Origin: Chiloscyllium plagiosum
Taxonomy: Eukaryota
Assembly: GCF_004010195.1 (NCBI RefSeq)
Contig: NC_057756.1
Coordinates: forward strand, 405,805-469,804
Direction of reading: 5' to 3'
DNA length: 64,000 bases
Shown here: positions 615 through 24,639 of the stretch, in pieces
Position numbering within the stretch: the first letter of the stretch is position 1
Layout of the letters: the number at the start of each line of letters is the position of its first letter
Notes under the pieces: generated by a model
The model's database searches: none
Told to the model about the DNA's origin: nothing
Seen by the model: only the letters and a program-made list of their open reading frames with translations
Program-made: the position numbers and the translations under genes

Positions 615-779
615 AGTAAATTTAAGGTGGTGTGAAACTTGACTAAATGAAGGTAAGTGGAACTGTAGACTAGCCTTTGAGTAGAATCAATGCCTGTCCA
701 GTTTGGAATAGAGACTTCGAAAGCACACAAAGGATAAATTATACAATAAGTTGTTATATTAATTAAGATTGCAAAGATA

Positions 780-1265: not shown

Positions 1266-1439
1266 TATGCCTTTCTGTTTCGTTGAGATGGCGCTTCAAA
1301 CCATCAGCAACTGATTATCTTGAGTTGCTGCATTACTTTTGCTGTTTCAGTCAGGTTGCTGGAATTGTCAGTGAAAACTACTGCTTTCAGTCTCTGTGGA
1401 AGTTTGGGATGCTCTGTTGCTTGATGAAGGTGAGGGGTA

Positions 1440-1861: not shown

Positions 1862-1908
1862 TATAAAATAGTGTCACTAACAACGTTAATGCCATGTTTA
1901 CTTCACAG
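1862..1908 (+). promoter_or_regulatory. TATA-like box and/or branch point plus splice acceptor upstream of exon A
   Basis: TATAAAA at 1862-1868, CACTAAC (branch-point consensus) at 1875-1881, TTCACAG| at 1902-1908. Confidence 0.45.
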
Positions 1909-1941
1909 GTTTTGACTTCTTCACCACGGAACAGCTCCTTC

Positions 1942-2017
1942 ATGCGTAAAATGCTGGAATTGTTTACCATTGTAGATAAAGTCTATTACATCACTATTGC
2001 TGCTATTGGCGTCCCTG
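1942..2017 (+). CDS. Coding exon A of a probable G-protein coupled receptor 139-like (class A orphan GPCR); N-terminus and TM1
   Basis: Reads MRKMLELFTIVDKVYYITIAAIGVP+G, then a canonical donor G|GTAAGT at 2017/2018. The phase-1 join to 22040 gives ...IGVP-V-NTLAIVILSQGK, matching GPR139 TM1 (VYYSLLLCLGLPAN). The start is uncertain: in-frame ATGs at 1894, 1942 and 1951. Confidence 0.8.
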
Positions 2018-2034
2018 GTAAGTTTTGTTTTGAA

Positions 2035-2118
2035 ATTTATTCATGGGATGAGGGCATCGTAGTCTTGGCCAGCAATTATTGCCTATCCTTAAAAGGCCAG
2101 AGGCAGTTCAAGAGTCAA
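2035..2118 (-). mobile_element. tRNA-derived SINE (family C), 3' part; continues at 5213
   Basis: Matches the family C copies at ~24800-24985 and ~55260-55580. Split by an insertion flanked by AGTCAA (2113-2118, 5213-5218). Confidence 0.7.
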
Positions 2119-2133
2119 AGAAAAAACAAAGAA

Positions 2134-2559
2134 TGACGAATTGAATTGAATTGAATTTATTGTCACGTGTTCCGAGGCACAAGAAAAAGCTTTGTCTTGC
2201 GAGCAATACAGGCAGATCACAGAGTTAAGTAGCATAGATAAGTACATAGTGGCAAAAACAAAAACACAGGTACTGGCAAATGTTAAGAGTTTGTGAGCCC
2301 ATTCTGTATTCTAACAATAGTAGGTTAGAAGCTGTTTCAAAACTACTGTTTCAAAGTGTTCAGGTTTCTTTACCTTCTCCCCAATGGTAGAGATTGTTAG
2401 AAAAATGTTGTCAGGGTGGGATGGATCTTTGAGAATCCTTGACAGCGGGCCTGGTAAATGGATTCTATAGATGGGAGGTTGGTCTTTGTGATTGTCCAGG
2501 CCGAATTCACCACTGTCTGTAACTGTCTCCGATCTTGACTGGTACAGTTGCTAAACCCA
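2134..2559 (-). mobile_element. Rex1/Babar-like LINE 3' fragment
   Basis: The - strand translates FSNCTSQDRRQLQTVVNSAWTITKTNLPSIESIY, typical of the Rex1 RT C-terminus. (TTCAA)n tail at 2138-2157. Confidence 0.7.
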
Positions 2560-5212
2560 AATTACAACACAGGAAAAGGCCCTTTGGTCCTGCAAAATCT
2601 GCACCGATCTAGATTTTCTATCCAAACCTGTCACCTACTTTCGAAGGATCTGGCTCCCTGCCCATTCATGTTTCTGTCTAGATGCTTCTTAAATGATACT
2701 ATCATGGCTGTCTCTACCACCTCCACGGGCATAGCGTCCCAGGCAACCACCACCCTCTGCATAAAGAACTTTCCACGCATATCTCCCCTAAACTTTTCCC
2801 CTCTCACCTCGAACTCGTGACACCTAGAAATTGAGACCCCCATTCTGGGAAAAAGCTTCTTGTTATCTACCCTGACTATACGTGTCATGATTTTGTAGGC
2901 GTCAATCCCCTCAACCTCCATCTTTCTAATGAAACCAATTCTCAACCTCTCTTCATAGCTAGCCCCCTGCATGCCAGGAAACATACTAGTGAACCTCCTC
3001 TGCACCCTCTCCAAAGCATCCACATCCTTTCGGTAATGTGGTGACCAGAACTGTATGCAGTATTCCAATTGTGGCCGAACCAAAGTGCTATATAACTGTC
3101 ACATGGCCTGCCAACTCTTGTACTCAAAACCCTGTCCGATGAAGGAAAGCATATTGTATACTTTTCTGACCACTGCATTGACTTGTGTTGTCACGTTCGA
3201 GAAACAAGGAACCTGGGCACCCAGATCTCTCTGTACATCAATTTTCCCCAGGACTTTTCCATTTACTCTTTAGTTTGCTCTTGAATTGGATCTTCCAAAA
3301 TGCATCAACTCGCATTTACCCAGATTGAACTCCATCTGCCATTTCTCTGCGCAACTCTCCAATCTATCTATATTCTGCTGTATTCTCTGACAGTCCCCTT
3401 CATTATCTGCTACTCCACCAATTTTAGTGTCATCTGCAAACTTGCCAATCAGGCTACTTATGCCTTCCTCCAAATCATTTTGTATATCACAAGTAACAGT
3501 GGTCCTAGCACAGATTCCTGTGGAACACCACTGGTCACAGGTTTCCATTTTGAGAAACTCCCTTCCATACTAATCTCTGTCTCCTGTTGCCCAACTAGTT
3601 CTCTATCCATCTAGCTAGTACACCCTGGACCCCTTGTGACTTCATTTTCTCCATCAGCCTGCCATGGGGAACCTTATCAAATGTCTTACTGAGGTCCATA
3701 AATATGACATCGACAGCCCTTCCCTCATTAATCAGCTTTGTCACTTCCTCAAAGTTATTAAGTTGGTAAGACACGACCTTCCCTGCACAAAACCATGTTG
3801 CCTACCACTTCCAAATATAAATAGATCCTATCCCTCAGTATTTTTTCCAGCAGCTTCCTCCTCCTTCTACCTCCTTCCTTATGCTGACTTGGACTAGAGA
3901 AATCAAACATCTATCCCTACCCTCAAAATCCGTCATGTCCTTCTCCTCGGTGAATATTGACGCAAAATAATCATTAAGAATCACGCCCATTTTCTCTGAC
4001 TCCATGCATAACTTTCCTCCTTTGTCCTTGAGTGGGCCAACTCTTTCCCGAGTTACCCTCCTGTTCCTATTCACCCCACTTTCCCCCCTAACCTATCACC
4101 TTCATCTCCTCCCCCACTCACCTATTGTACTCTATGCTACTTTCTCCCACCCCACCCAACAATGTTAGCCAAAAGTGCCCCCAAGGAAATTAGTTCCAGC
4201 CTGGCCAGGTATAGACCACCTGTTTGAAATAGTCCCACTTTCCACAGAAGTGGCCTCAATGTCCCAAAAATCTGAAACCTTCCCTCCTGCACTATCTCTT
4301 AATCCACGCATTCATCCTGCTTAATCCTTCATTCCTACTCTGACTAGCACGCAATCCTGAGATTACTACCTCTGCGGTCCTACGTTTTAACTTGGCTCCT
4401 AACTCCCTAAATTCTGCTTGTAGGACCTCATCCCATTTTTTACCTATATCATTGGTGCCTATATGCACCATGACAACTGACTGTTCACCCTCCCTCTTGA
4501 GAATTTTCTGCAGTCGATCCGAGACATCCCTGACCAGTGCACCTGGGAGGCAACATACCATTCGGGAGTCTCGCTTTCAACCACAGAGCTGCCTACATAT
4601 TCTCCTTACAATTGAATTCCCTATGACTATAGCCCTTCCACTCTTTTTTACCACTCTTCTGAACAGCAGAGCCAGCCAGGGTGTCAGAAACCTGGTTACT
4701 GCTGCCTTCTACCTGATGAGCCATCTCCCCTAAACATATACAAAATGGTTTACCTGTTTTGGAGGGATTTGACTGAACTACCTTCCTGCTCTTTCTCTGC
4801 CTTTTGGTTACCCATTCCTTTTCTCTCTCAGCAATCCCAATCTGCGGTGTGACCAATTTGCTAAACGTGCCATCCATGACCTCCGCAGCATCACGTACAC
4901 TCCAAAGTGAGTTGGCCCACAGCTCTAGAGTCATCATGCAGTCTAGCAAGAGCTGAGACTGGTCACACTTCCTGCACGGGAAGGGGTCCGGGACATCAGC
5001 CGTGTCCTTGAGCTCCCACGTTGAGCAAGAGGAGCATAACACGGATCTGAAATCTCCTGCCATTTTTAAACTTAACTTAGTCTTAATTTAGGTAAATGAA
5101 ATAGGAAAGAAAAGTTTATTTTACCAATCACACAATAAAATAAAAAAAAAACAAAAACCTTATCTTATCAACTCACCACAGAGTCCATTTTTTTGGTGAG
5201 AGGAGGAGGGCC
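2560..5212 (-). mobile_element. Internally deleted CR1 LINE (5' UTR, ORF1 zinc finger + SGNH esterase, ORF2 RT end)
   Basis: ORF1: CSSC..CRKC, CLPGA, HIGTNDIG. ORF2: KFADDTKIGG, RPQLEYCIQFWSPHY. Frameshifted. Confidence 0.92.
4073..4158 (+). mobile_element. Short Penelope-like (family B) fragment at a deletion junction inside CR1
   Basis: CCTATCACCTTCATCTCCTCCCCCACTCACCTATTGTACTCTATGCTACTTTCTCCC matches 62480-62620. Confidence 0.65.
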
Positions 5213-5450
5213 AGTCAACCACATTGTGTGGAGTCTCATGCAGATTTGACCAGATAAAAATGGCAGCTTCTTTCCCAAAAGGATATGGCTTTTTATTTCC
5301 AACAATCTACATCATTAGACACTTAATTCCAGATTTATTTATCATTGAATTCATCTGCCATGATAGGATTCTAACCCAGGTCTCCTCGCTCTTACCCGGG
5401 TCTCTGGATTAATGGACCATTGGGATCTCCATTAGATTACAGCCTACTCT
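5213..5450 (-). mobile_element. tRNA-derived SINE (family C), 5' part
   Basis: Continues the element from 2118. The B-box-like GGGTTAGAATCC lies on the - strand. Confidence 0.65.
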
Positions 5451-5925
5451 CAGCATAACTTTTAAAAACAGTTGCATGAATCTGTGCATTGGAATACCAT
5501 GCCACAGGACTTATATTTAGCTCAAAATATTGCCAATGTCGAATTGGGTTAATTGCGTATTTGTTGGCACTGCCATCATTGAATATGATTATCAGGATTG
5601 TTGTAAGTTTTGACTTGACCTTATGTAAGTGATTGCATTGAGTTGATCATGCTCAGGGAAGCATTTTCTTGTTTAGTGAATGCAATCCCCTGCAAAGTGG
5701 ATTTTTCTTTTTCCATTGAACAATGAAGGTTTTTTTCTTTCAATGAGTAGTTTTGAGGAATTAGTGATGATACTTCCGAATCCCAGTGGGTTATACTAAT
5801 GGAAAACATTCATTAGCACGTCACCCTAGGACTGAGTATATTTTTACAGTCCTGGACACAATTAGGGATTGGAAATGTCGCATTGTTTCCAGAAATGCAT
5901 TGATTGGTTTGAAGTGGATTAATTC

Positions 5926-6495
5926 CATTATGCACCAGGCCAGACTCTCTCAACATATTTTAAGAATGTGACGTGGACCATGATTTTTTCTTAGTTTAAA
6001 GAGAGATGTGAAATAGATATTCCAGTCATGACACAGCTGGTTAAACCACTCGGCTTTAAGTAGAACAGAATTTACTTCAATTGTACAATTGAAACACTAA
6101 CAAAACAAAATGGAATTTAGAATAACGTAACTATTGGAAATGGTAACCGACTCGATACAGCAACTTAATTAAGGAGCTGTTCCATTGCCTGCAATATCCC
6201 ATAAACATACCCCTTGGAAATAGATAAATTGAAAGGTATGTTCTTACAGACAGGAGAGATTTCAGAGAGAGAAGCCAGTCAAGAATCATCTGCATTGAAC
6301 CTGTTTGCACTGTAGCAGCTTTTCTATTACAACGAAACCAGATTAAATAAATATCTGAACCGGCAGAACTGGTCACTCCCTTGATATTGTTAAAACAGAC
6401 ATTTCCAGCCATTTCAGCAGTTCTGCCTTTACAACCTCTCCTAAAAAATATCCTCAAAGACAATATAATCTTGTTAAAGTGACAACATTGTCACA
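5926..6495 (-). repeat. 3' LTR of Gmr1-like element 1
   Basis: Aligns with 10021-10605 and ends ..GTCACA on +, followed by the PPT complement CCTCCCCCCTT. Confidence 0.85.
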
Positions 6496-7784
6496 CCTCC
6501 CCCCTTAAAGAAAGAACAATTAATATACAAAGATGGCTTCATTTAAAAACTCTTTAGTCTTACTCTGTTGGTAGACAACAATAAATTTCCATTTCATTGG
6601 CAGTAACCATGCAAACATGCACTGCTACAATCTAATTCAGTCTGTTTACTCTTGCCACCGAGCACCTCTGTTTTCATTCAAGTTTCGACATACGTCGGCA
6701 ATTACATTTTCTTGTCCTGCCACATGTACAGTTTTTAAATTGAATGGCAGCAATAATAAACTTAACCTAAACAGTCTGGAATTTTTGTCCTTAAAATTCT
6801 GCAAAAACCTTAATGGGTCATGATCAGTATATGATTATCTCAACCACCCATTACTGGCAACGTAAATATTAAAATGTTGTAACAACAAAAGCAAACTCAA
6901 AGGCTTCTTGCCAGTGGTCAAATATTTCTATTGTTGCATGTTCATTTTTTTGGGAACTATCCAATAGGTCTTTCTAGCTTGTGGTCATCCTCTTGTAAGT
7001 GCACAGCACCAGCATCCACATCACTAGCATTGTTAACCACCTTGAATGGCTTTGTATCATTAGGTGTGGCTAATACTGGGGCCATGGTTGATGCAGCTTT
7101 CAGGATGTCAAATGTGTTCTGACAGTCTGACTGTCTGAAACTGTTTGTCCTGCTTCAATAATTCAGTGAGTGGAGCAGTCACACTGCTAAAGTTCTATAC
7201 GAATTTCTGATAAACCCAGAAATCATAGTGCTGCTCCTTTCGTCAATGGTATGGGAAACTCCCCAGTCACCTTTGTTTTCACTTTCCAGGGCCATCTGTC
7301 CATGTCCAATGACATGGCTAAGAAATGTGACTTGGCTTTGGCGAATTCACTTTTAGCCAGGTTTATCACCAAGTCTGCTTCCCAAAGTCGATTGAATAGA
7401 TCTGATAATTGCTGCAAAAGTTCGTTTCCTGCGTGACTAAAAATCACCAGGTCTTCAATATATACCACACAATTAGTCATCTAGAAATGACTTTATTGGT
7501 TAGTCTTTGAAATGTGGCCTGTACATTTTTCATATCAAATGGGATGACTTTAAATTGATACTCTCTACTACAAAAGCTAAAATTGTCTTTGGTCTTAAGG
7601 ATAAAGGTACCTGTGAGTTTCCTCTGAGTAAGTTCAACTTAGAAAGAAAAGTTGCTTGTCCCAGCTTCACAATACAGTCTTACAAATGTGGGATCAGGTA
7701 TGAATCAGACTTTGTAACTGCATTGACTTTGCAGTAGTCTACACATAACCATTGTGTACCATCTGGTTTGGGGATCACTACTGT

Positions 7785-8096
7785 TTAGATTAGATTAGAT
7801 TACTGACAGTGTGGAAACAGGCCCTTTGGCCCAACAAGTCCACACCAACCCGCCAAAGCGCAACCCACCCATACCCATTCCCCTACACCTAACACTGTGG
7901 GCAATTTAGAATGGCCAATTCACCTAACCTGCACATTTTTGGATTGTGGGAGGAAACCAGAGCACCTGGAGGAAACCCACGCAGACACAGGGAGAATGTG
8001 CAAACTCTACACAGAGAGTCGCCTGAGGCAGGAATTGAACCCAGGTCTCTGATGCTGTGCGGCAGCAGTGCTAACCACTGTGCCACCATGCCGCCC
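7785..8096 (-). mobile_element. Full-length HE1-type V-SINE inserted in the Gypsy RT
   Basis: tRNA head GGGCGGCATGGTGGCACAGTGGTTAGC, V domain and (AATCT)n tail. RT sequence resumes on both sides. Confidence 0.93.
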
Positions 8097-10020
8097 ATAT
8101 GGGTGAGGTCCAGTCACTGCAACTCACTTCAATTATCTTGCCTTAGAGCATGTGTTCAATCTCTTTTTGAACTTGTGCCAACGTTAGAGGGTTAAGTGTA
8201 TAAGGATGTTGCTTAATTGCAGAATCCTCTGAACGGAGTTGTTTTTTAATCAGTGTTGTAAACAATAACACATTCATCATTTGCTTTCCTTCCCCAACAA
8301 AGGACCCTTTGAACATAGTCACATGACACACTATGCCAGATTTCTTTCTGTCTGGCGTTCTTATCAAATAGGTCACCTCACTCACTCTTCTTTCGATTTG
8401 ATAAGGGTATTTAAGCGTTGCTATCACTTGAAGTAACGCTAACACTTTATTTCAGTTAGAAAAATTGAGAATTTTTGATTTCTTTGGCTTCCTGTTTCTG
8501 TGTTATTTCAAATATTTGATCAAACATAGTTTCTGATCATTCTACTTCAACTCCCTTATCTCTATTCTTTGATTTGTCCTCCTGTTTCAACTGGTGACTT
8601 TGCGACCTTGTTGCCATGCAGTCAGGAAAACTCCCAGGATATATTTCCTCTAATACTTCAGTTAACTGATTTTTCACTGGCTTCTCAACCACAGTAGGCA
8701 GTCCTCCTACCTGTGACCCAGCTATATAGTTAGCAAGGACAACTTGTATTCCTAGAACTGAGATTTTTCCAGTACCCCTACCACCACTGGACCCTCTAAT
8801 CTTACTCTACATAATTGAGCAGTTCTTGTCTTACATGAATTCCATATACTAGCACTTCTTTTCAGGCAATAGCTCTTCTGAGTTACATACTACTTTCTCA
8901 CAATATCAAAGATTCACACAATTCCGTAACTCTTAATTCTGTAACTTCTTTACCTGCTGCTCCTGGCCAATATAAGTAAATCTTACCTTTGCAAGTAAAT
9001 AGTTTAAGAAGATTTGGTACTTCATCCTTAACTAACGTCCGACCAGGTTGTACATTCTGGTGCAACTTTTTTAGCTTCCACTGCACTTTCCTTTACCACT
9101 TCATCAAAATTCGCTGGCTTATCCTTCCCAGTGCTTTTTCTAAGCCACCAATCTGTGATTTCATGTGGGCCACTTTATTGCATTGAGAACACTGCAGCTT
9201 TTTAACTTCTGTTTCCCTTTAATGGATTTTCTTTTTTACCCTGTGGTAAATTATCTTTATGATCATCACATAGATCTACATTTTCCTTACCGTGTAAGGA
9301 TTTCTCTTTACCCCCATTTCTATCCCTCATGGATTGAAATTGATGCTGGAAGCCAAACTTTGAACTATGAACCAACTCATAATCATCAGCCATTTTAGCT
9401 GTTTATCTGGCCGTTTTAACTTTCTGTTCTTCCACATTTGTTCTCATTATCTTTTTGAAGTCCTTCATCATTTCATGCTGACTTGACTGTCTAAGTGCCA
9501 ATTTATGAAGTGCAAGTCTCTAGTAGTCTCCCTTTCTTCTCTCTCTTTTCCCTATGCTCTCTCTCTTTTACTTTTTGTCCTGCGAAAGCCTTTCATTCTT
9601 TTTCTGTTTTCTCTGCTTTTAATCGCAATTCCAACTGGTCCGTTTCTTTTTCATGTTCCAGCTGCCTCATCTGCAACTGAATTCTCTCCATTTCCAAAGA
9701 ATCTGATGGTGTTACCAATAAATTTAAATGCCAAGCTAGTCATGCAGCCCTCTCCTTTTCTCGTGAACACAGGCAACTCCAATTCCAGTTTCTCTGCCAA
9801 TTCCAGCGGGTTTGCCTTGCTCACCTTTGGTAAAACCCCCAAAATAACTTCTTCCAACCCCAGAAAACTCTTAGTGACTGAAAGAGCCATTACTGTAGCA
9901 AGCACTGTTTAAACCAACTGTGTTCAATACCCAGAACAAAAGACACTAACACCTACCACTCGTCGCCTTTGAGTCCAGCAACCCTGATCTGAAATTGGAA
10001 TGATTAAATAAATAAAGATT

Positions 10021-10605
10021 TGTTATGCACCAGGTCAGACCTCATTAAAATATTTTAAAAAGGTAGCCTAGATCCTAACTTTTTCTTATTTTAAAGGCAG
10101 ATCGCAAGTGAATATTCCAGGTGCGATGCAGCTGGTCAAACCACTCGGCTTTAAGCAAAACAGAATTCATTTAAACATGGCAGCTAAAACATGAACAAAA
10201 GAAAACTGAACTTAGAATAAGTTAACTATTGGAAAACCTAACTGAAGTGCTACAGCAACTTAACTAAGGAGGTGTTCCAATTCCTGTAACATCCCATAAA
10301 CATATCCTTTGGCGAAAGATAGATTCGAACACAGGTTATTACCAGCAGAGAGATTTCAGAGAGAGAAGGTTGTTAAGAATCATGTGCTGACGAATGGAAG
10401 CTGTTTACATTGGAACAGCTTCTGCTACAGCTACCAGCAGCTTCTCTGCTACAATTAAACCGAACTACAAAAAAAATTGAACTGCCCACTCCCCTGCCAT
10501 TGTTGAAGTAGGCATTCCTAGATATTTCACATCTCTGCCTTTGTGACCTCTCTTCAAGAAACCCCAAAGTCAGAATAACCTTGTTAAAGTGACTGCATCG
10601 TCACA
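10021..10605 (-). repeat. 5' LTR of Gmr1-like element 1
   Basis: TGTTATGCACCAGG...GTCACA termini (TG..CA). Aligns with 5926-6495. Confidence 0.85.
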
Positions 10606-11000
10606 ATCTGCTTTCCCAACAACAGCTCCATAACTGATCACTTGTGAAGTCTCAATTAAATTAAGTATGTAGTGTCTGCAGTTATTCACCACTGTCCCTC
10701 TGTAATTCCTGGCCATTTACTCTCTATAACTCTCTCTCTTTCCATAAGGGATAATTTAACTGAATTCTGACTTTGCTTACTATATCAGTAGAGAGATGTA
10801 GAACGGAATAACACACCATTGTTGTTTAAATCGCAACAGAATTCAGACTTGCAATTATGAAATACATGAACAATCATTTTAATAAAATCAGTATTTCAAT
10901 CCACACTATACTAAAAGTAGTTATTTCACAATTATATCAGTAGCAGACAATTTGTAACCAAACTAACATCAATCAATCCTGTTTTTTTTTCTACTTAGTT

Positions 11001-11056
11001 GTTGGCTTAGCTGAGTTGGCTGGGTTGTTTCCTTACAGAGCAATGTATGCTGGCAG
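11001..11056 (+). mobile_element. tRNA-derived SINE (family B), 5' head fragment
   Basis: GGCTTAGCTGAGTTGGCTGG A-box-like head, matching the reverse complement of 20100-20125. Confidence 0.5.
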
Positions 11057-12017
11057 TAGAGTATTGAACATAGAATGTTGAGCATCACAGCGCAGTACAG
11101 GTGCTTCTGCCCTCGATGTTGAGCTGACCTGTGGAACCAATGTGAAGCATATCTATCCTACACTATTCTGCTTTCATCCATATGTTTATCCAATGACCTT
11201 TTAAGTGCCTTAAAGTTGGCGAGTCTACGACAGTTGCAGGTAGTGCATTTCACGCCCCTCTGCATAAAGAATCGACTTCTGACATCTGTCTTATATCTAT
11301 CACCCTTCAATTTAAAGCTATGTCCCCTCATGCTAGCCATTAGCATCTGAGGAAAAAGCCTCTCCCTGTCCACCCTATCTAACCCTCTGATTATCTTATA
11401 TGTCTTAATTAAGTCATCTCTCACCCTTCTCTCGAATGAAAACAGCCTCAAGTCCCTCAGCCTTTCCTCATAAGACCTTCCCTTCAACCCAGGCAACATC
11501 CTTGTAATTCATGTCTGAACCCTTTCCAAGGCTTCCACATCCTTCCTATAATGTGGTGACCAGAACTGTATGCAATACACCGAGTGCGGCCGCACTAGAA
11601 TTTTGTACAGCTGCAACATGACGTCATGGATCCAAAACACAATCCCTCCACTAATAAAAGCTAACACACTGTTTGCCATCTTAACAACCCTATCAACCTG
11701 GGTGTCAACTTTCAGGGATCTATGTACATGGACATTGAGAGCTTTCTGCTCATCTACACTGCTAAGAATCTTACAATTAGCCCAATACTCTGTATTCCTG
11801 TTGCTCCTTCCAAAGTGAATCATCTTAAACTCCATTTGCCACATCTCAGCCCAGCTCTGCAGCTTATCTATGTCCCTCTGCAACATGCAACATCATTTGG
11901 CACTGACCACAACTTTTCTTAATGTCAACCACAAATTTACTAATCCATCCTTCTACGCCCTCATCTAGATCATTTATAAAAATGACAAACAGCAGTGGAC
12001 CCAAAACAGATTCTTGC
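11057..12017 (-). mobile_element. CR1 LINE 3' fragment (RT C-terminus)
   Basis: LQRDIDKLQSWAEMWQMEF, LVRPHSVYCIQFWSPHYRKDV. Confidence 0.92.
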
Positions 12018-12210
12018 ACCATAGTCTTCACAAACCATTGGGTGGGGAGGGGGGGGAGGGGGGGGTCCTGCTCTTTCATTAGAGAGAACCAATTGCTGGC
12101 AATTCAATTCCCATCACTGATTTGAGGTAACTATGAAGGACTCTCCTTCTAAAACTCTTCCCTTGTATTCGGTCTGGTGACTCTCAGGTTAAATCGCCAC
12201 CAGTTGCTTT
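12018..12210. mobile_element. Family B SINE pieces in opposite orientations
   Basis: 12018-12099 matches the - strand tail (compare 19198-19226 and 19942-19970). 12100-12210 matches the + strand body (compare reverse complement of 19960-20060). Confidence 0.6.
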
Positions 12211-12211
12211 T

Positions 12212-13609
12212 ACATAGAACACAGAAATATATAGCACAGAACTGGCCCTTTGGCCCACGATGTTGTGCCGAGAATTGATCCTAATGAAAACAAAAACTTA
12301 ACCTATGCACCCCTCAACTCACTGCTATCCATGTGCATGTCCAGCAGTTGCTTAAATGCCCCTAATGACTCTGCTTCCATGCATTCACAGCTCTCTGCGT
12401 AAAGAACCTTCCTCTGATGTCTCCTTTATACCTTTCTTCTAATACCTTAAAACTATGACCCCTCGTGCCAGTCAATCCTGCCCTGGGGAGAAAAGTCTCT
12501 GGCTATTTACTCTATCCATTTCTTTCATTACCTTGTATACCTCGATCAGGTCACCTCTCTTCCTTCTTCTCTCCAGAGAGAAAGGTCCGAGCTTATTCAA
12601 CCTCTCCTCATAAGGCAAGCCCTCCAGTCCAGGCAGCATCCTTGTAAACCTTCTTTGCACCCTCTCCAAAGCCTCTTGTATCTTTCCTATAGTAGGGCAA
12701 CCAGAACTGGACACAATATTCCAAGTGTGGTCTCACCAGGGACTTGTAGAGCTGTAGCAAAACCTCGTGGCTCTTAAATTCGATCCCCCTATTAATGAGA
12801 GCGAAAACACCCATATGCTTTCTTAACAACCCAATCTACTTGGGTGGCAACTTTGAGGGATCTATGTACTTGTACACCAAGGTCCCTCTGTTCCTCCACA
12901 CTGCCAAGAATCTTGTCTTTAATCCTATATTCAGCATTTGAGTTTGACCTTCCAAAATGCATTACTTCGTATTTGTCCAGGTTGAACTCCATTTGTCATT
13001 TTTTAGCCCATTCTGCATCCTATGTCGCACTGCAGCCTGCAATAGCCCTCAATGCTATCAACGGCACCTCCAACCTTTGTGTCTTCTGCAAATTTACTAA
13101 GCCACCCCTCAACCTCCTCATCCAAATAATTTATAAAAACTACAAAGAGCGGAGACTCAAGTACAGAGCCCTGCAGGACCCCACTCAAAACTGACCTCCA
13201 GGCAGAATACTTTCCATCTACAACCACTCTCTGGCTTCTGTTAGCCAACCAATTCTGAATCTAGATGGCCAAATCTCCCTGTATCCCATACTTCCTGACT
13301 TTATGAATGAGCATACCTTGGGGAACCTTATTAAATGCCTTGCTGAAGCCCATATACACCACATCCACTGCTCGACCTTTGTCAACCTGCCTGGCCACCT
13401 CCTCAAAGAACTGAATAAGATTTATGGGGCATGACCAGCCCCTCACAAAGCCATGCTGACTGCCTTTAATCATGTTATGCTTTGGCTGACAGTCATAAAT
13501 CCTATCCCTCAGAATTCTTTCCAAAACTTTGCTGACCACAGATGTAAGACTGACTGGTCTGTAATTGCCAGGGATTTCCCTATTAACCTTCTTGAAAAGA
13601 GGAACAACA
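12212..13609 (-). mobile_element. CR1 LINE 3' part (RT), cut by assembly gap
   Basis: PGNYRPVSLTSVVSK, QHGFVRG, KFAEDTKVGG, RPHLEYCVQFW, and an (ACATAGA)-type tail. Confidence 0.93.
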
Positions 13610-14109
13610 NNNNNNNNNNNNNNNNNNNNNNNNNNNNNNNNNNNNNNNNNNNNNNNNNNNNNNNNNNNNNNNNNNNNNNNNNNNNNNNNNNNNNNNNNNN
13701 NNNNNNNNNNNNNNNNNNNNNNNNNNNNNNNNNNNNNNNNNNNNNNNNNNNNNNNNNNNNNNNNNNNNNNNNNNNNNNNNNNNNNNNNNNNNNNNNNNNN
13801 NNNNNNNNNNNNNNNNNNNNNNNNNNNNNNNNNNNNNNNNNNNNNNNNNNNNNNNNNNNNNNNNNNNNNNNNNNNNNNNNNNNNNNNNNNNNNNNNNNNN
13901 NNNNNNNNNNNNNNNNNNNNNNNNNNNNNNNNNNNNNNNNNNNNNNNNNNNNNNNNNNNNNNNNNNNNNNNNNNNNNNNNNNNNNNNNNNNNNNNNNNNN
14001 NNNNNNNNNNNNNNNNNNNNNNNNNNNNNNNNNNNNNNNNNNNNNNNNNNNNNNNNNNNNNNNNNNNNNNNNNNNNNNNNNNNNNNNNNNNNNNNNNNNN
14101 NNNNNNNNN
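13610..14109. other. Assembly gap (500 N)
   Basis: Run of exactly 500 N. Confidence 1.
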
Positions 14110-15244
14110 CAACCCTGGCACCAGGGAGGCAATCCACCAACCGTGAGTCTCTCTCGTCCCCACAGAACCTCCTATCTGTCCCCCTAACTATGGAGTCCCC
14201 AATGACTATTGCTCTGCCCCCTTTCCCTTCTGAGCAGCAGGGACAGACTCTGTGCCAGAGCCCTGTACTCCACTGCTTTCCCTGGTAAGTCATCCCCCCC
14301 CAATAGTATCCAAAATGGTATACTTATGTTGAGGGGAATGGCCACAGGGGATCCCTGCCATGCTTGCCAGTTCCCTTTCCATCCCCTGACTGTAACCCAT
14401 TTGCCTTTTTCTTGTACCTTAGGAGTGACTATCTCCCTGTAACTCCTCTCAATAGCCCCCTCTGCCTCCCAAATGATCCGAAGTTCATCCAGCTCCAGCT
14501 CCAGCTCCAGTTCCCTAACACAGTTTTCGAGGAGCTGGAGTTGGGTGCACTTCCCGTTTTTCTTGTACCTTAGGAGTGACTATCTCCCTGTAACTCCTCT
14601 CAATAGCCCCCTCTGCCTCCCAAATGATCGGAAGTTCATCCAGCTCCAGCTCCAGTTCCCTAACGCGGTTTTTGAGGAACTGGAGTTGGGTGCACTTCCC
14701 GCAGCTGTAGTCAGCAGGGACACTAGTGGGGACCCTTACCTCCCACATTCTGCAGGAGCAACATTCACCTGCCCTAACCTCCATTCCCACTATTCTAAAT
14801 TCCCAAAGAGACTGTTGAAAAAATAAGGAATAAAAAAAACTCATTACCTTACCAATCTGGCACACAAGTCCTTTTTTTTGATTAGAGGAGGAGGATGGGT
14901 GGGAGACACTACCCGAGTAGTGTTTCGGGTAACGCAGCCACACAAAAATATGACTTCCCAGAAGTCCTTCGCTCCTCCCTCGCCGCTCTGGCAAAATGGA
15001 GGCCTGACTCCCGAGGTAGGTCCCTTTTAATGCGGGAAACCTCACCCTTTCCGGCAGCCCTCGCTTCACCTCTCCTTCTCTCCTCGCCGCTCTGGCAAAA
15101 GGGAGGCCCGACTCCTGAGGTAAGTGCCTTTTAATGCGGGAAAAGTCACCCTTCCCGGCAGCCCTCACTTCACCTCTCCTTCTTTCCTTGCCGCTTTAGC
15201 AAAATGGAGGCCTGGCTCCCGAGGTAAGTGCCTTTTAATGCGGG
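14110..15244 (-). mobile_element. CR1 LINE 5' part: 5' UTR with ~105-bp tandem units and ORF1
   Basis: ORF1: CCSCRMWEV..CGKCTQLQFL..RELELEL, and esterase VIGDSIVRG..CLPGARV. Confidence 0.9.
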
Positions 15245-18200
15245 ATCATAAGCTGCTTGTCCCACTCTCTCAATACAGCCTTCAAAACGTGAAGTCTTTG
15301 TAACTGCATTGACTTTAGGATAATCCACACATAACAGTTGGGTAACATCTGTATTGGGACCATTAGTGTGGGTGAGTTACAGTCACTGGAACTCGCTTCG
15401 ATAATGCCATCTTGGAGCATGTGTTCAATCTCCTTTAGAACCTGTGTCAACTTTAGAAAGTGATGCCTATAAAGATGTTGCTTAATTGGAACAGCATCTC
15501 CTAAATCTACATCATACATAATTTAGTTCATCTTCCCAGTTTATTTTTGTATATTTCACCATGTGATATGCATCTCTTTGAGGAAATTTAGACTTTCCCA
15601 TGGAAGGTCACTCAACAATTTATCCCAATTTTTGACAACTTCCTCATTGTCCAATTTAATTTGAGGAATGTCCAATTCAACATCCTCTGAACTTGCTTCT
15701 TCACTCCGTGTTACAATGGATAAAACATTTTCCTTTTATTTACCTTCCCTTTCGAAATATCATTTGAGCAAATTCACGTGACACATTCTGTGAGGTTTCT
15801 TTCTATCTGAAGTCCTTATAGTTCTCAATTTCCTTTCGATTTGATAAAATCTAGTCAACATTACTTTTAAAGGTTTACGAATCACTGGAGGTAACCTTAT
15901 CTCTAAAAGCACAAATGCAAGTTTTTGATTTTTTGTCTGCTTCCTGTTTCATTGTATGCTGTGATATGTTTAAATGCCATCGAGCCAATTTCCTCACTCT
16001 ATTTGTTTGCTCCTGAAAATTTGACACATAGTCCAAATTTGAGCTCTTTGAATTCTGACTTACCAATTTCTCCTTAATTAATTTTAGCGATCCTCTGATT
16101 TCATTCCCCCAAAACTAATTCAAATGGACTGAATTTGCTGTTTTCATTTGGTGTGTTGCTGATCACAAAAAGCACATACAAAGTTCCCTATCCCAACCGT
16201 CTGGATAGTCTTCACTATAAGCCCTCAAAATGTCTTTAATGTATGATGCCACCTTTCTAACACTCCCTGCAACTCTGGATGGTATGCAGTATGGAGTCCT
16301 TATGAATTGTTTTATTTGTAAGTTGGCCATAACTTCCTTGAATACTTTTGATGTGAAGTTTGACACTTGATCTGATTGTATCTCTGTGGATAATTCATAT
16401 TGCATGAAAAAATTGACTAACTTCTCTACAATCCTTTTTGCTGTGATATTGCGTAATGGAACAGCCTCTGGAAATCTAGTGGACACATCAATTATTTTCA
16501 TAAATATCTATTCCCAGTTTTTGCTTGAGGTAGGGGACCTAAGAAATTAATTAAGACTCTTGTATAAACGTTCCTCAAATGCAGGAATAGCTATTAAAGG
16601 TATACTTTCTATTAATGCCCATGTGGAGATTAATGTGGGGGTTTTCCAATTATCTGAAGTGGTTAACATGCCTGGCAAAATGCAACTACATCCTTTTGCA
16701 ATCCAGACCAGTAAAACTGCTTTTGCATTTTGCCATTGGTTTTTCTTACCCGTAAATGACTGCCTACCGGTAAGTAATGCAACACTCACAAAACCATCAC
16801 CCACTGGAAATACGGATTGATGATTTTCTGCTCATTTCTCATCTGGCTGAATATGTAATGATCTCCATTTCCTCATTAAGACATCATGTTTAAGATAATA
16901 ATATTCAGGGCTCCATTTGGATTGTTTTCCTACAAATACTTTTTGTTGCAAATGCTTTAAGTTTTCATCTTTCTGCTGTAACTCAATTAATTGAGCTAAA
17001 CATTTCTGCTTTGTCATCTATCTGCTTCAGGTTTATCTCAACCATCTGATCAAACTGGGTGTCTGCAAATTCTTACCTCCCCTGTTTCAACTGGTGACTT
17101 TGTGACCTCGTTACCACACAGTCAGAAATCATCCCAGAATACATGCAACTGCAATATTTCTGTTGTCTGTGTTTCCACTGGCTTTTCAACCACAGGTAGG
17201 CAGCACTCCTACCTGTGACCCAGCTGTATCAGTAGCAAGGACAGATTGTGTTCCTGGAGCTGAGAGTTTGCCCAGTACTCCTACCATTCTTCACTGGACA
17301 CTCTAACCTCACTTTACATAATTGAACGCTTCTTATCTCATCGTGAATTCCAGTTACTAGTACCTTTGCTGGCAATAGTCCTTTAGAAATACATATCTCT
17401 TCATCTTTGAACACTACAGATTGAAAGAATCCCGTATCTTTTAATATTGTAACGTCTTTACCTACTGCTCCTGGCTGAAGCAAATAAACTTTACCTTTGC
17501 AGTTGTATGGTGTAATAAGATCTGGCACTTTCTCCTTAAGCAACCTTAAACCAGATTGTACATTCTGGTACAGCTTTCTAAACGTCAGTGCTTTCCATGA
17601 CCACTCCAATAAAATTAACTGGCTAATCATTTTTTCCAACATGTGGCTTCCCAGCGATTTTCCTAACCCACTGACTTGTGATTTCATGCGGTCTATTTTA
17701 TTGGAGCATTTTTACTTCTCTTTCGCCTTCAAGGGTCTCCTTTTTACCCTTTGGTAAGTAATCCCTATGATCTTCAATGGAATCCATCGTTCCCTTTCCA
17801 CACGAGGATTTATATTTTCCCCAATTTCTATCCCTCATGGATTAAAATTGATTTTGGAAGGCACACTTAGATTTATGGAGCAACTCATAATCATCAGCCA
17901 TTTCAGCTGCTAATCTTGCTATTTAACTCTCTGCCCTTCGACGATTTCTCATTGTTCTGGAAGTGAATTTTTGAACTCCTCTAAAATAATTGTCTCTTGA
18001 AGAGGATCATAGGTTTGCTCTATTTTTAATGCCCTTCTCCACCTCTCAAAATTACTTTCTTTGATCCTTTCAAACTCAGTGTAGGTTTGACCAGGGTCCA
18101 TTCTTAGATTCCTGAAACATTGTCTGTAGCCTTTTGGTGCAAGTTCATAAGCACTAAAGACGGCTTTCTTCACCATCTCAAATGTCCCAGATATTGCCTC

Positions 18201-19186
18201 TGATGGCGATGGGAATCCATCACTAGCGCTATCTATATGTTTTGTTTGGGTTAATACATGGTCACTGGGCACTGCATGTTTTTAGCCACCTTTTCCAATG
18301 AGATGAAAGAACCTTCCACATCCTTCTTATCAAATTTAGTCAATGCTTGAATATATTTAAACAGTTTCTCACCAGGACATTAGTTACCACAGGTTTGCTT
18401 ATCCTCACTCACTTCCTTACTAAGCTTACCTTCAGAGTTCATCTCCATTCTTTTCAACTGACTTTTCCACCTACGTACCAAACTCTGAAGTTCAAACTCA
18501 CTCTCCTTCTTCATTTCCTCTCTCTGTCTTTTTCTCTCTTCTCTCTCTTGTTCTCTTTCTCTCTCTCTTTCTCTGCTTTTAATTGGAATCCATGTTGCTT
18601 CATTTCTGTTGCCCCTTTCCTTGTCTTTGCCTCTTACTGAAGCTGCTTAATTTTTAATTGAATTTTAGCCATCTCTAAAGATTCTGATAGCTTTCCTAGC
18701 TAATTTAAATGCTCAACTATTGCAGTAATTATCTCTCCTTTCTCACCGAAGGAAGCAGCTCCAACACCAGCTTGTCAGCTAATTCCAGCAGCTTGGCCTT
18801 AATCACCTTTTGCAAAACCCCCCAAAGTCACTTCTTGCACCCCCAAAGAACTCTTAGTGACTGAAAGATCCATTGCTAATCCAAGAACTGCTTAAACTAA
18901 CCAAATTCAATACCCTGAACAAAAGACACTAACACCTACCAATTGCAGCCCTCAAACCCAACAGCCCTAATCCCAAATTGGAACGATAGAACAAGTACCA
19001 CAAAAAAGCACTCCCACAATCCCCCTACCCCCAATCTGTTATGGACCAGGACAGTCCCTTCCAAAAAATTTCAAGCAAGCAGACTAGACCCGATATTTGC
19101 TCGTTACTTTCAGCAGGTGTAACATGGATATTGCAGGAGAGATGCAGCTGTTTAAACCATTTAGTTTTAAATGAAACAATTGATTT

Positions 19187-20131
19187 TTGTTGTATGGCCA
19201 TAGTCTTACCAGACCATAGGGGCTGTTATAGAGTCATAGAGTCATAGAGGTGTGCAGCATGGAAACAGCCTTTGGTCCAACCCGTCTATGCCAACCAGAT
19301 ATCCCAACCCAATCTAGTCCCACCTGCCAGCACCCAGCCCATATCCCTCCAAACCCTTCCTATTCATATACCCATCCAAATGCCTTTTAAATGTTGCAAT
19401 TGTACCAGCCTCCACCACTTCCTCTGGCAGCTCATTCCATATACGTACCACCCTCTGCATGAAAAAGTTGCCCCTTAGGTCTCTTTTATATCTTTCCCCT
19501 CTCACCCTAAACCTATGCCCTCTAGTTCTCCCTGACCCCATGGAAAAGACTTTGCCTATTTACCCTATCCATGCCCCTCATAATTTTGTAAACCTCTATA
19601 GGGTCTCCCCTCAGCCTCCGACGCTCCAGGGAAAACAGCCCCAGCCTGTTCAGCCTCTCCCTATAGCTCAAATCCTTCAATCCTGGCAACATCCTTGTAA
19701 ATCTTTTCTGAACATTTTCAAGTTTCACAACATCTTTCCGATAGGAAGAGACCAGAATTGCATGCAATATTCCAATAGTGGCCTAACCAATGTCCTGTAT
19801 AGCCCCAATGTCACCTCCCAACTCCTGTACTCAATACTGTGAGCAATAAAGGAAAGCATACCAAACACCTCCTTCACTATCTTATCTACCTGTGATTCCA
19901 CTTTCACGGAGTTATGAACCTGCACTCCAAGGTCTATTGTTCTCTCATTACAGAGAAGCAATTGATGGTGATTTAACCTGACAGCAACCAGACCTCAGGT
20001 GAGGAAAGAGGTTGAGAAAGAGAGTCCTTCATGGTAACCACAAACCAGTGATGGGAATTGAACCTGCACTGTTGGCATCACATTGCGCTGCAAACTGAAA
20101 AGCCGGCCAATTGAAATAAACCGATTCCCTG
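19187..20131 (-). mobile_element. Family B tRNA-SINE inserted in the LTR, itself interrupted by CR1
   Basis: Flanked by the 9-bp repeat AATTGATTT (19178-19186, 20132-20140). B-box GGTTCAATTCCC on - strand. Confidence 0.78.
19228..19941 (-). mobile_element. CR1/HER1 LINE 3' fragment, little decayed
   Basis: RPLLEYCMQFWS, RGNFFMQRVVRIWNELPEEVV, and a (TATGACTC)n tail. Confidence 0.93.
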
Positions 20132-21443
20132 AATTGATTTGCAACATTATCAAATGAAACACAAACAAAAGTGAGCAAAATACAAAATAACTTACCCTAT
20201 CCAAAAGCCTAACTGATTATCCCCTAACTGAATGATGTGGTTCCAAATAGTTGCAACAATCCCTATAAATACCCCTCGGCATAGAAGGTAAAATCAAACA
20301 CAGGCTCTTACAAGATAGATAGGTCAGAGAGAGGACCAGCGTTGACCTGCTTCTTTGGTTCCAGCAGCTTCAAAAGCTGCCTGCTAAAAACCAAAGAAAA
20401 CCAGAGAAAAGCTGAGATGGGAGAAGTGGCCACTCTTATTTCATTGTGCAAGAGTTTTTTTTAAATTCGAAAGCCTTTTTCCCGATGCAGTATCTAAAAT
20501 TAAACTGTCCCTAAAACCCTTCAAACAAAGACTTTTCAGGGTTAGTGTCTTTTACAATCTCCCTGAAAATAAAGTCAAGGACACCATAACCTTGTTAAAG
20601 GAGCAACATCATCACACTATGCAACAGGCACCTCCATTACTTTGGGGACTTCCAAAAGCAGGTTGTATAATAGTTTGGTGTTGCACACCAGTTCAATCTA
20701 TAAGTGTAAGCTAGAGCTATTTTTAACTGATCATTCACATTTCATTATGTATCTGAAATCCATGTCTTCAATTCATGTGTAGTTAGTCTTATTTTGTCAA
20801 AAAAGAGAGAAAAAAGGACATATTTCCGTGACACAAACCTTTGGTGCTGGTTGGATCACAACAGCAGAATGATCTCCAACCAGCTAATAATCGCTTTCAA
20901 TTATTTTCTTAGATGAAATAATTGTCCATTTTTTCATATTTTCAAGGCTGACTTTGTTGGCCTGATGTATCAATTGACAGCTCCATTTAGATACTTTGAT
21001 GTTCATTAATGGTCCCATTCATATTACATCACATTTCAGTTCCTCAGTGGTTATCCTCCACATGTTAGCACACCATTGTCGTGGTTTCCAATCCTCAACA
21101 CGAGTGCCACTTGTTGGTAGGATATTGATACCTTCCCTATTGTGGGGCACCTCTGTCATCGTATTCTTGTGGAACATTGCATAAGAAATATCTGTCTCGT
21201 AAGGTTGCATTATGTAATGTTACGGTGGCAAATCCATGAAGATGGGCAGCATATTTGTAATCTGCATGTCATTATTTGACAACTTCTATTGTGACCATGT
21301 TAAGATTTGCCCTTGAACATGTAAATCCGTAGCTCCATGGCTAGGAGAATAGCTTCATTAATTGTTGGGGATGTGAAAGGGAAATGGACAATTCGCTACA
21401 CTCCTTACGTTTTTATTTTGCTTCCATTACCAGAGTGATGTCA

Positions 21444-21752
21444 ATTAGATTAGATTTTTTTTAGATTGCAATACAGTGTGGAAACAGGCCCTTTGGCCCA
21501 ACAAGTCCACACTGACCCGCCGAAGCGCAACCCACCCATACCCGTACATTTACCCCTTACCTAACACTACGGGCAATTTAGCATGGCCAATTCACCTTTG
21601 GACTGTGGGAGGAAACCGGAGCACCCGGAGGAAACCCGCACAGACATGGGGAGAACGTGCAAACTCCACACAGTCAGTCGCCTGAGGCAGGAATTGAACC
21701 TGGGTCTCTGGCGCTGTGAGGCAGCAGTGCTAACCACTGCCACCGTGCCGCC
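21444..21752 (-). mobile_element. HE1-type V-SINE
   Basis: tRNA head, V domain and (AATCT)n tail. Confidence 0.92.
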
Positions 21753-22039
21753 ACTAATCCAATAAAACATGGTCTATCTCATTCCGTACGCAACAGTAAC
21801 ATATTCAAATGACCATTTTATTCTTCCACAACTCTTTTGTAGTACTTCATGTTTGACAATCACACTCACATTCTCTTTGTTGCCTGGACCTATCTTAATG
21901 TGTTATGGAATATGGATTAAGTTCCTTTTAAATTTCAACATTCTTCCTTACCACCATTGATGGTTGGCTCAAATCCAAACATTGCCATCTTGACTCAAAT
22001 GGAAAACTGCTTGACGTATAATTTCTAAACTAATTTCAG

Positions 22040-22950
22040 TTAATACACTGGCAATTGTGATCCTGTCACAAGGAAAATGTGGCCTCTCTAGATGCACCAC
22101 TCATTACCTGGTTGCCATGGCAACAGCGGATCTAATGGTCATCATCAATGATATTATATTGTATCAGCTAAATCACTATTTTTACCAGGGTTCGTTCCTG
22201 CATCTCACACCTTCATGCATTGTGATAGATTTCCTGCTTTTTATGAGTTCAGACTGTTCTGTCTGGTTCACTGTCACTTTCTCCGCTGATCGGTTTGTGA
22301 CCATTTGTTGTCAGAAACTGAAACTGAAATATTGTACTGTGAAAACAGCAGCTGTTATTCTTTCAATAACTGGCACTATATTCTTTCTAAAAAATGTTCC
22401 AATTTTCATTATACTGGAACCTAAGATTGTGGTTGACAATGTACAGTGGTATTGTCAAACGAAGCCAAGCTATTACACTGTACTCGGTTGGCTTGTATAC
22501 GACTGGTTAGATAAGGTATTAACACCACTATTTCCATTCATTTTAATTTTGCTCTTCAATGCTATGACAATCAGATATGTGTTAGTGGCGAATCGGATTC
22601 GTAAAGGATTGAGAAGTCAGCACACGGAAGAGAAGCATAGTGATACGGAGACGGAGAGCAGAAGAAAGTCAATGATTTTACTGTTCACCATATCTAGCAG
22701 CTTCATACTGCTGTGGTCACCCTATGTAATCAATTTCTTATATTATCGAAATGCAGAAATTGATCCCAGATTTTACAACGACGGCTTGCACATATTTGAA
22801 AGAATTGGATTTATGCTACTGAGTCTGAGTTACTGCACAAATGCGTTTATTTATGGAGTAACTCAGTCGAAGTTTAGGGAACAGTTCATTCGTGCTGTAA
22901 AGTACCCACTGGCTTCAATTAAGAGAGGCTTTACTTTCAAAATGAACTAA
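22040..22950 (+). CDS. Main coding exon B of a probable G-protein coupled receptor 139-like 7TM receptor
   Basis: Acceptor TTTCAG| at 22039, then an uninterrupted frame to TAA at 22950. Rhodopsin-family motifs: TM2 AMATADL, TM3 SVWFTVTFSADRF, ECL2 Cys (WYCQ), TM5 TPLFPF..FN, TM6 LLWSPY, TM7 CTNAFIY, helix 8 SKFREQF. It resembles GPR139 but is too divergent to call the ortholog. Confidence 0.93.
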
Positions 22951-23204
22951 TGGCAGTCTATAAGACAGTGCCATATACATCTGTTTGCATGAGTGCAATT
23001 TTCAGTAGTAAACGTTCATCAATTGGTTTGTAGCAAAGGTCTTTGTTCGCATGAAAATACGAACAGCACTGTAGTGTTACTTTCCATTGAATGTTGTCTT
23101 TTTTTTGAACTGCCATAATACTGAGATGACAATTTTAACCTTTAGGTGAGGTAAGTGTAATGATTAATTTGTTTAAAAAGCTGCACCATTGCACCATCCA
23201 CAAA

Positions 23205-23272
23205 AATAAAGAAAATCCCATGTGATTTGACATGTAGAACTGAGGTGAGGGCATTGCATTCCATCAAATAAA
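23205..23272 (+). promoter_or_regulatory. Candidate polyadenylation signals of the GPCR gene
   Basis: AATAAA at 23205-23210 and 23267-23272, about 255-320 nt after the stop codon. Confidence 0.4.
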
Positions 23273-23693
23273 TTGCAATGATTCAAATGATTGTGCCACT
23301 CATTCGTATTGATGTTGTATTGTAGATGAGTCTAGTCTCATTTTGCCTGCCTCATTTCCGCTGTGTTTTCCAATAACTTTTCTACTCATGTCCTGTTTTA
23401 TTTACCTCAGATATTATCTGTTATGATACCAAATATTATTCCTATTGAACAACTCAGATTTGAAGCAGAAATCTGGATTACTAACGCGCCTTTATTTTAC
23501 TTCACATTTGAAGTGGTAACCTTGCATCGAAAGATAAGCGTGAAACTCTGAATATTTGGTTTTTACAATGAATCAGGATGTTACTAAAGGAAAGGAAAAT
23601 CATGAGAAATCATTCATGCTCTTCACAAATAATATAGTTAGCAAGTTTTCAAAGCACATGGCAAAAAATCACTCCTGTCTATCGCAACATCAA

Positions 23694-23893
23694 GAATAAA
23701 GAACAAGAAAGAGCTTGTGCCGATCCAAATCCACTATCGAACCCTATCGCCCAATTCCTAAGCAGCTGTATCCCTCTGCTCCACACCTTCTCATGCATCT
23801 GTCCGGACGCGCCTTAAGTGAATCTACCGTGTCTGCCTCTATTACCTCTGCTGGCAACGCGTTCCAGACACCTACCACCCTCTGTGTAAAGAC
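23694..23893 (-). mobile_element. CR1 3' end fragment
   Basis: FTQRVVGVWNALPAEVIEA. Confidence 0.8.
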
Positions 23894-24639
23894 TTTAGAG
23901 TATTGAGATATCTGGGAGAGAGTTGCCTTTCCCTTGATTATCAATATAACTGCGCTTGAATATTCTTAACATCGAGTGACATATCTAGTTTTTAACCAAA
24001 GATGTCTTGCCTGGAATATTCATAATAAAATACTTGCAAGGGGATCACATCTTTCCAAGTGTTCTGAATTAATTCCTTTTGGAAGAGAATTTGTTCCTGT
24101 ACCTCCCCTTTCCAGTCTATCTGTGAACTACCTCAAATGCCTCACACACTTGGAAAGAAAATCTCTATTCTTCAAAACCGAAAGCAAGCAGCTGCAGATC
24201 AAGGATTGCCTTCTTGGATCATAAAGCACTCACAATGCAAACTCTCTCACAATTTCACTCCAGTATTGCCCAATTGCCTGTATTCTGAAACATAACAGTT
24301 TGAAACAATGGCTCCACAAAGACTAACATATTACTTGTTATCCTTCATGCACACAGACTAAAATTGACATTTTCACTCTTCCCAAAATCAAACCCACAAG
24401 TACATTGCATTCTAGAAACATAATTTTTAAAAATTTTATACACTCATGTTTTGTTTTTGGATCTTACACATTCTGAATATTCTATCGTAAATAATTTCCT
24501 TATGTTCTATTGGGTTTATTGGATGCTATTTGCTGAGTTTTGCTTTCGGCATATTGCCTTTCAAATAAGCCTCAGGAGGAATAGATCTCTCCATATGTCA
24601 ATATCCAAAAGTATAGAATAAAGAGTGACATTAAAGGCT

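Follow-up and report, generated by a model that had tools for sequence, protein, structure and literature searches.

A stretch of 64,000 nucleotides from Chiloscyllium plagiosum (contig NC_057756.1, positions 405,805 to 469,804 of the forward strand; hereafter the window, in whose numbering coordinates are given) contains a receptor gene with the database name "probable GPR139", which raises the questions of whether the gene is intact, whether the name is right and what the receptor may sense. We find an intact two-exon receptor gene on the plus strand, and we are highly confident that it belongs to a large family of receptors found in sharks and rays. In this family, pocket residues are among the fastest-changing sites and the cytoplasmic face is the slowest, and single-copy relatives reverse this pattern.

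Coding exon 1 (1951-2017) encodes a short N-terminus and the outer part of transmembrane helix 1 (TM1) and ends one codon before Asn 1.50, and coding exon 2 (22040-22950) encodes the end of TM1 through helix 8 and the stop. They are spliced in phase across a phase-1 GT-AG intron (2018-22039, plus strand; 20,022 nucleotides as assembled, of which within-window repeats cover 49%), with the donor GTAAGT directly after 2017 and the acceptor TTTCAG directly before 22040. The joined frame has a single, terminal stop and yields 328 amino acids from an ATG at 1942, 325 from 1951, and 344 from 1894. A preliminary description of this DNA had proposed just such a small upstream exon, joined in phase to exon 2 to give ~328 amino acids without an internal stop, and this is what we find; it had also given exon 2 as 297 amino acids, and a large exon is indeed there, but it holds 302 whole codons and the smaller figure counts from an internal GTG. 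RefSeq XP_043539240.1 (C. plagiosum, 341 amino acids, "probable GPR139") has the same exon join and a 100% identical exon 2 product, and carries at its N-terminus two extra residues from an upstream micro-exon. The translation start is uncertain, the candidates being the ATGs at 1894, 1942, and 1951; because the Met matching 1951 is the first residue of the orthologs in zebra, brownbanded bamboo, epaulette, and horn sharks, the product would most likely have 325 amino acids. Exon 1 is nearly identical to the ortholog exon 1 and is, after exon 2, the best match in the window to a family profile that includes the window protein itself. Of 150 family representatives, 24 give alignments that set in at residues 37-41 (exactly at the split codon in 15), and 13 have the first Met of exon 2 as their start, which is what gene predictors that overlook the small exon would produce. 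Because alignment and protein starts cluster in this way at the exon 2 boundary, the intron position seems to be common to the family; human GPR139 has two exons (PMC7318219).

The product is a G-protein-coupled receptor (GPCR) of class A, as judged from its domain match and predicted fold: Pfam 7tm_1 scores 65.9 bits on exon 2 against a cut-off of 30.5, and the predicted structure has seven long helices plus helix 8 with a pLDDT (predicted local distance difference test) of 92.7. A fold search returned 500 class A matches, with GPR139 at rank 7 and E-values all alike, and such a search cannot rank class A receptors. The core motifs N1.50, D2.50, DRx, W6.48, Y7.53, and the cysteines at 3.25 and in extracellular loop 2 (ECL2) are kept; the receptor lacks the NPxxY Pro and Trp 4.50, and for want of the latter TM4 is numbered by convention. 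Beside these, five cysteines of inner loops 1 and 2, all encoded by exon 2 (residues 52, 57, 128, 129, and 137), are nearly invariant across the shark family and could possibly serve palmitoylation or form a cytoplasmic cysteine cluster.

A shark and ray family apart from GPR139

A search with the exon 2 protein gave 1674 matches among 2651 candidates. The best 120 of these are all from sharks or rays, at 53-100% identity, and ~116 of them bear the GPR139 label. By hand count, 64 of the best 120 come from the horn shark, fall into clusters less than 90% identical to each other, and are spread over 19 scaffolds, with 22 on one; the nearest paralogs have consecutive RefSeq numbers on a single scaffold. 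Clustering at 50% left 110 clusters scoring below 1e-30, and 11 of the 20 representatives looked up are elasmobranch. No chimaera member appeared among the named rows, most representatives being unnamed, and because the family searches require shared exact words, absences of this kind are unproven. The subgroup of the window receptor is conserved, with 70-86% identity among carpet sharks and the horn shark. The many paralogs foreseen in the preliminary description are therefore present, with at least 64 distinct horn shark copies among the best 120 of 1674 matches, and the clustering that it proposed to test is seen in the horn shark but not at this locus: tblastn and a six-frame profile search found no second family member in the 64 kb. 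Extra tblastn matches in the window were rejected as paralogs, as they derive from repeat-derived ends of mis-predicted models.

In C. plagiosum itself, summed contig depth at 22256-22369 reached 6200 and 9817, against 8-13 in unique flanks, a hint that this species has many related TM3 sequences, though not a copy number. The contigs of runs X1 and X2 are DNA-like because they run unbroken across the exon 2 acceptor. Run X2 also contained single-contig variants at 22153, 22328, 22698, and 22710 (Ile77Val, Lys135Thr, and two silent changes), which would represent alleles or a close paralog.

A tree of 47 chosen rows recovered the shark and ray expansion (support 95/89), a clade C (100/100), the two together (100/99), and a clade B (100/100), with the order among amphioxus, anchovy, clade B, and clade C plus the expansion unresolved; a quick tree of 98 rows had the same shape. 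The preliminary description had suggested a phylogeny with GPR139 and GPR142, and the separate elasmobranch clade is recovered, although from trees without true GPR139 and GPR142 sequences. We conclude that the family is one clade, with copies clustered on many scaffolds, apart from GPR139, GPR142, and clade B. Clade C (25 matches among 1675 candidates) comprises a sturgeon protein and 20 clusters from amphibians, each listed species contributing one. It is the sister clade of the shark family, with which this amphibian and sturgeon gene (Pleurodeles XP_069092602.1, Acipenser RXM35349.1) shares a cysteine-rich inner loop 2 and an acidic/basic motif from intracellular loop 3 (ICL3) to TM6; unlike the shark family, it has one cluster per species and a nearly invariant pocket with Lys at 6.51 and 6.55. 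Its pocket is basic (Lys 6.51, Lys 6.55, Arg 2.61, and Arg 7.35), and in five sequences checked Asn replaces Asp 2.50. Clade B is a conserved gene of sharks, coelacanth, ray-finned fishes, amphibians, turtles, and squamates (145 matches among 1739 candidates, the named rows being the best 120), and no bird or mammal is among the best 120 of its 145 matches. This gene lacks Trp 6.48 and Pro 6.50, and two of its models are labelled as TMEM183A isoforms, which suggests that it lies beside TMEM183A. The third vertebrate lineage near the family is represented by a single anchovy protein only. Three non-human sets near GPR139 and GPR142 (GPR210A, an unnamed set, and GPR210B) were described by Rinne et al. 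2019 from coelacanth, gar, and fishes; the available text has no occurrence of "shark" and names no expansion (PMC6504862). Three vertebrate lineages are also recovered here, and the shark family and its sister gene probably belong to this "GPR210" group, by likeness of pattern only.

Could the gene nevertheless be the shark GPR139, as its label says? We give this next to no credence. The RefSeq name speaks for it, and so does the sequence comparison with solved structures, in which human GPR139 comes out first (PDB 7VUG; 49.7 bits, E-value 3.5e-12 for the single sequence and 9.9e-30 for the profile). The window receptor has in common with human GPR139 and GPR142 motifs in TM1, TM3, TM6, and TM7, the lack of the NPxxY Pro, Phe 3.33, Trp 6.48, and two coding exons. 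The GPR139-type motifs named in the preliminary description (VYY..GVPVN, SVWFTV, LFTI, and NAFIY) are all found in the sequence. However, the identity between the window receptor and GPR139 is 24%, as against 96% for mouse, 92% for chicken, and 70% for zebrafish GPR139 compared with the human protein (PMC7318219), and an amphibian protein (136 bits) and a coelacanth protein (124 bits) both outscore GPR139. For C. plagiosum, a published orthogroup table contains GPR139 and GPR142 and no other gene, both under those names (PMC13689627), which is indirect evidence from gene names. At the Trp/Phe site of GPR139, F3x33, H5x43, W6x48, R6x51, and N7x38 are important (PMC5430874); by hand mapping, two of these five are kept in the window receptor (Phe 3.33 and Trp 6.48), and the others are changed (His5.42 to Asp, Arg6.51 to Tyr, and Asn7.39 to Phe), as is Glu3.32 (to Leu). 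The window receptor further differs in being multicopy and in two features already noted in the preliminary description: an ICL3 longer by ~12 residues than that of human GPR139 in our alignment, and cysteines at the top of TM3 and in ECL2 (Cys98 at 3.25 and Cys177). GPR139 lacks this cysteine pair (PMC5430874). The pair is present as described but is no departure of the shark receptor; because Cys 3.25 occurs in 60/60 clade B and 23/23 clade C sequences, it is the ancestral state and GPR139 is the odd one out. That the gene is no one-to-one GPR139 ortholog thus holds, and the phrase "GPR139-lineage" applies in so far as it is a relative of GPR139 and GPR142; descent from GPR139 is not borne out, the nearest kin being the amphibian and sturgeon gene.

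A variable pocket and a fixed signalling face

We compared amino-acid rates per site in all 64 horn shark paralogs (mean identity 77%), in a random sample of 60 clade B sequences with 85% coverage of the core (mean identity 60%), and in all 23 clade C sequences (mean identity 77%), and defined the pocket as 17 positions from a GPR139 mutagenesis model (PMC5430874). In the paralogs, pocket sites changed 2.82 times as fast as the 158 other TM sites (p 0.0008), and in the controls they were slower (0.67 times in clade B, p 0.088; 0.47 times in clade C, p 0.004). Against 66 other sites in the outer half, the ratios were 1.80 (p 0.076) for the paralogs, 0.60 for clade B, and 0.49 for clade C. By permutation, the shift between paralogs and controls had p 0.0001 when TM sites served as the reference and p 0.0037 when outer-half sites did. 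Repeats in 56 matches from other species (2.35 times TM sites; 1.55 times outer-half sites, p 0.054) and in 49 deep representatives (2.26 and 1.59 times, the latter with p 0.0086) gave similar ratios, the three paralog sets being related and the repeats therefore not independent. The fastest paralog sites include 2.61, 3.29, 3.32, 3.33, 7.35, and 7.39 and the residues flanking the ECL2 cysteine. Conversely, the cytoplasmic face of the paralogs changed at 0.24 against 0.50 for all sites, and in the controls at 0.98 against 0.97 and 0.95 against 0.81.

The contrast is also visible in residue combinations: seven pocket positions, picked after viewing the alignment, form 60 combinations in 64 paralogs, 11 in 60 clade B sequences, and 2 in 23 clade C sequences, and a broader list of 28 pocket positions, picked in the same way, gave stronger numbers than the 17-position list. 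At the same time, the paralogs have an acid at 3.37 in 61/64, Asp 5.39 in 55/64, and Asp 5.42 in 47/64. Position 6.51 is Arg in only 2/64 paralogs, as against Arg or Lys in 60/60 clade B and 23/23 clade C sequences.

Many clustered paralogs with a variable pocket and a fixed cytoplasmic face are typical of the OR, TAAR, V1R/ORA, and FPR repertoires and of the nematode Srw repertoire. The shark family is like these chemoreceptor repertoires in pattern without belonging to them by sequence, its best matches being peptide receptors; among its protein-atlas neighbours, the Srw Pfam family is annotated on 16-74% of members.

What the family may sense

Diversified ligand sensing by the family is, in our judgement, probable, and on balance we favour copy-specific ligand sensing by a member of this shark and ray family as the best explanation of the whole. 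Each copy would recognise a different ligand or ligand class, and all copies would signal through the same G protein, as in a sensing repertoire. Ligands would be told apart at 3.29, 3.32, and 3.33 and at 7.39 and 7.43, and the acidic patch of 3.37, 5.39, and 5.42 would hold cationic ligands such as amines or basic peptides; fish TAARs use Asp 5.42 for amines. At 6.51, the basic residue that holds the polar end of Trp or Phe in GPR139 is mostly replaced. Because Arg 6.51 is mostly lost and the acids are kept, amines or basic peptides would be likelier ligands than free aromatic amino acids. Relatives on this branch are peptide and amino-acid receptors (PMC8514136, PMC12208981). As to the site of action, external chemosensation by sensory cells of the nose, skin, gill, or gut is our first choice, tentatively held. 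The wider proposal, that tens to hundreds of genes from the branch of GPR139 and the sex-peptide and FMRFamide receptors form an unrecognised chemosensory family of sharks and rays that offsets their tiny OR, TAAR, and ORA sets, is possible, though we lean against it.

Several points weigh against copy-specific sensing as we propose it. The excess of the pocket over outer-half sites was not significant in two of the three paralog sets (p 0.076, 0.054, and 0.0086), the rates are amino-acid rates and not ratios of nonsynonymous to synonymous change (dN/dS), and the composition of the two trees and the late choice of the 7- and 28-position lists count here as well. Only two family members are named for C. 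plagiosum among the best 120 of 1674 matches, and shark olfaction has been assigned mainly to the V2R family (PMC11979771). No read fell on exon 2 in two single-cell runs from one sample (2% and 6% read), a share that is no test for a sparsely expressed receptor. The term GPR139 is absent from 4 supplementary files of an immune-cell atlas for bamboo shark and from 12 of the 19 files of a thymus study (PMC11372145, PMC12286861), marker tables which may use LOC numbers so that unnamed genes would escape the term; a further supplement set (12 of 24 files) gave no match. The "chemosensory or immune" role named in the preliminary description accordingly finds support in the pocket variability but none in the sampled parts of the single-cell runs.

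Within diversified sensing, the same family could instead act in immune or barrier cells and detect microbial, parasite, or damage peptides, for which the formyl-peptide and MRGPR repertoires provide the comparison. A pathogen arms race would explain the variability of the pocket and ECL2 equally well, and the very short tails and peptide-receptor ancestry are in keeping with it; the silence of the immune-atlas and thymus supplements speaks weakly against it, as LOC genes would be missed, and we regard this role as unlikely but far from negligible. A further possibility, which we consider improbable, is that the copies are receptors for endogenous peptides or metabolites, multiplied and split by tissue and ligand with no outside sensing. 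All characterised relatives bind amino acids or neuropeptides (GPR139/142, sex peptide/MIP, and FMRFamide receptors, in the papers cited above), and the conservation of the window subgroup from carpet sharks to the horn shark fits; however, dozens of pocket combinations per genome go beyond any plausible hormone set, and relatives with endogenous ligands have a fixed pocket. The variability might also reflect birth-and-death duplication under relaxed selection, with many silent copies whose pockets drift without a need to bind ligand. The missing exon 2 reads in the sampled runs, the repeat-rich surroundings, and the many database models that are partial or have odd N-termini agree with such drift, but both exons are in intact frame, in the orthologs too, the signalling face and core motifs are nearly invariant, and the variation lies along the pocket-facing side of the helices and not in contiguous tracts, making such drift decidedly improbable.

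It is very unlikely that the 20-kb join is an assembly artefact that links the exons of two tandem copies. An assembly gap of 500 N (13610-14109) does lie within the intron, the length of which is approximate for this reason, and a sister species has near-identical tandem paralogs with the same exon 1. Moreover, no spliced read joining 2017 to 22040 was seen, the sampled RNA runs having no exon 2 reads; at 21800-25200, run X5 gave two reads, at a repeat, run X6 gave none, and there was no splice joint. Against this, both flanks of the gap look like parts of one minus-strand long interspersed nuclear element (LINE): on the left, the sequence can be aligned to a reverse-transcriptase repeat found in another part of the window, and on the right it resembles what we take to be the first open reading frame (ORF) of this type of LINE. 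Probably, therefore, one or two kilobases of a single such element are hidden in the gap. The same zebra shark protein is the best or near-best match for both exons, and the RefSeq model makes the same join. The family result stands even if the join were an artefact.

The gene model and its relatives are already in RefSeq, under an automatic label, in line with the uncharacterised repertoire of the preliminary description, and the label may be misleading for well over a thousand matched database entries. No description of the shark expansion was found in the literature searched (subscription papers and a catshark supplement lay outside its scope), and it goes unmentioned in the available portions of the papers on the genomes of whale shark, catshark, and zebra shark (PMC8455134, PMC11979771, PMC10620051). 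Cartilaginous fishes have been described as poor in GPCRs (PMC8455134), with only a handful of OR, ORA, and TAAR genes (PMC11979771). At least 64 distinct copies with a variable pocket in one shark contradict this picture and provide, in this family, a tangible candidate for a sensory or innate-immune repertoire that is missing. If the wider proposal is true, a chemoreceptor repertoire would have arisen independently in vertebrates once more, concealed by a single automatic label. For the ligand of the ancestor, the sister gene, single-copy in amphibians (Xenopus, axolotl), gives a practicable way in.

Transcript features and surroundings of the gene

Upstream of exon 1, a TATA-like box on the plus strand (1862-1868, a consensus match only) lies 26-32 nucleotides before the ATG at 1894 and would place the transcription start near 1890. 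Use of the ATG at 1894 or 1942 would add an optional in-frame N-terminal extension (1894-1950, plus strand) containing NSS, the sole N-glycosylation sequon. The first two residues of XP_043539240.1 could be accounted for by a candidate two-codon micro-exon with a GTAAGT donor at 647-652 (plus strand) or by an alternative at 1424-1429 (plus strand), with the acceptor AG at 1907-1908; because the orthologs lack it, the RefSeq micro-exon is probably a gene-prediction extension. Downstream, the first two candidate polyadenylation signals on the plus strand start at 23205 and 23267 (23205-23272), and further candidates lie at 23695, 24024, 24617, and 24630, all by motif only.

A Pfam scan of 14 other ORFs in the window gave one match, a reverse transcriptase, and none of them is a neighbour gene usable for synteny. 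No other protein-coding gene was recognised at 22951-64000 among the part-scanned ORFs of at least 120 amino acids, small exons not being sought, and no tRNA gene was found in the window. Decayed LINE copies with reverse-transcriptase remnants, 64-74% alike, lie on the minus strand at 44626-47050, 12212-14323, and 2631-3806, and tandem arrays occupy 14978-15245 (period 104), 52682-52939 (period 128), and 63265-63792 (period 30/10).

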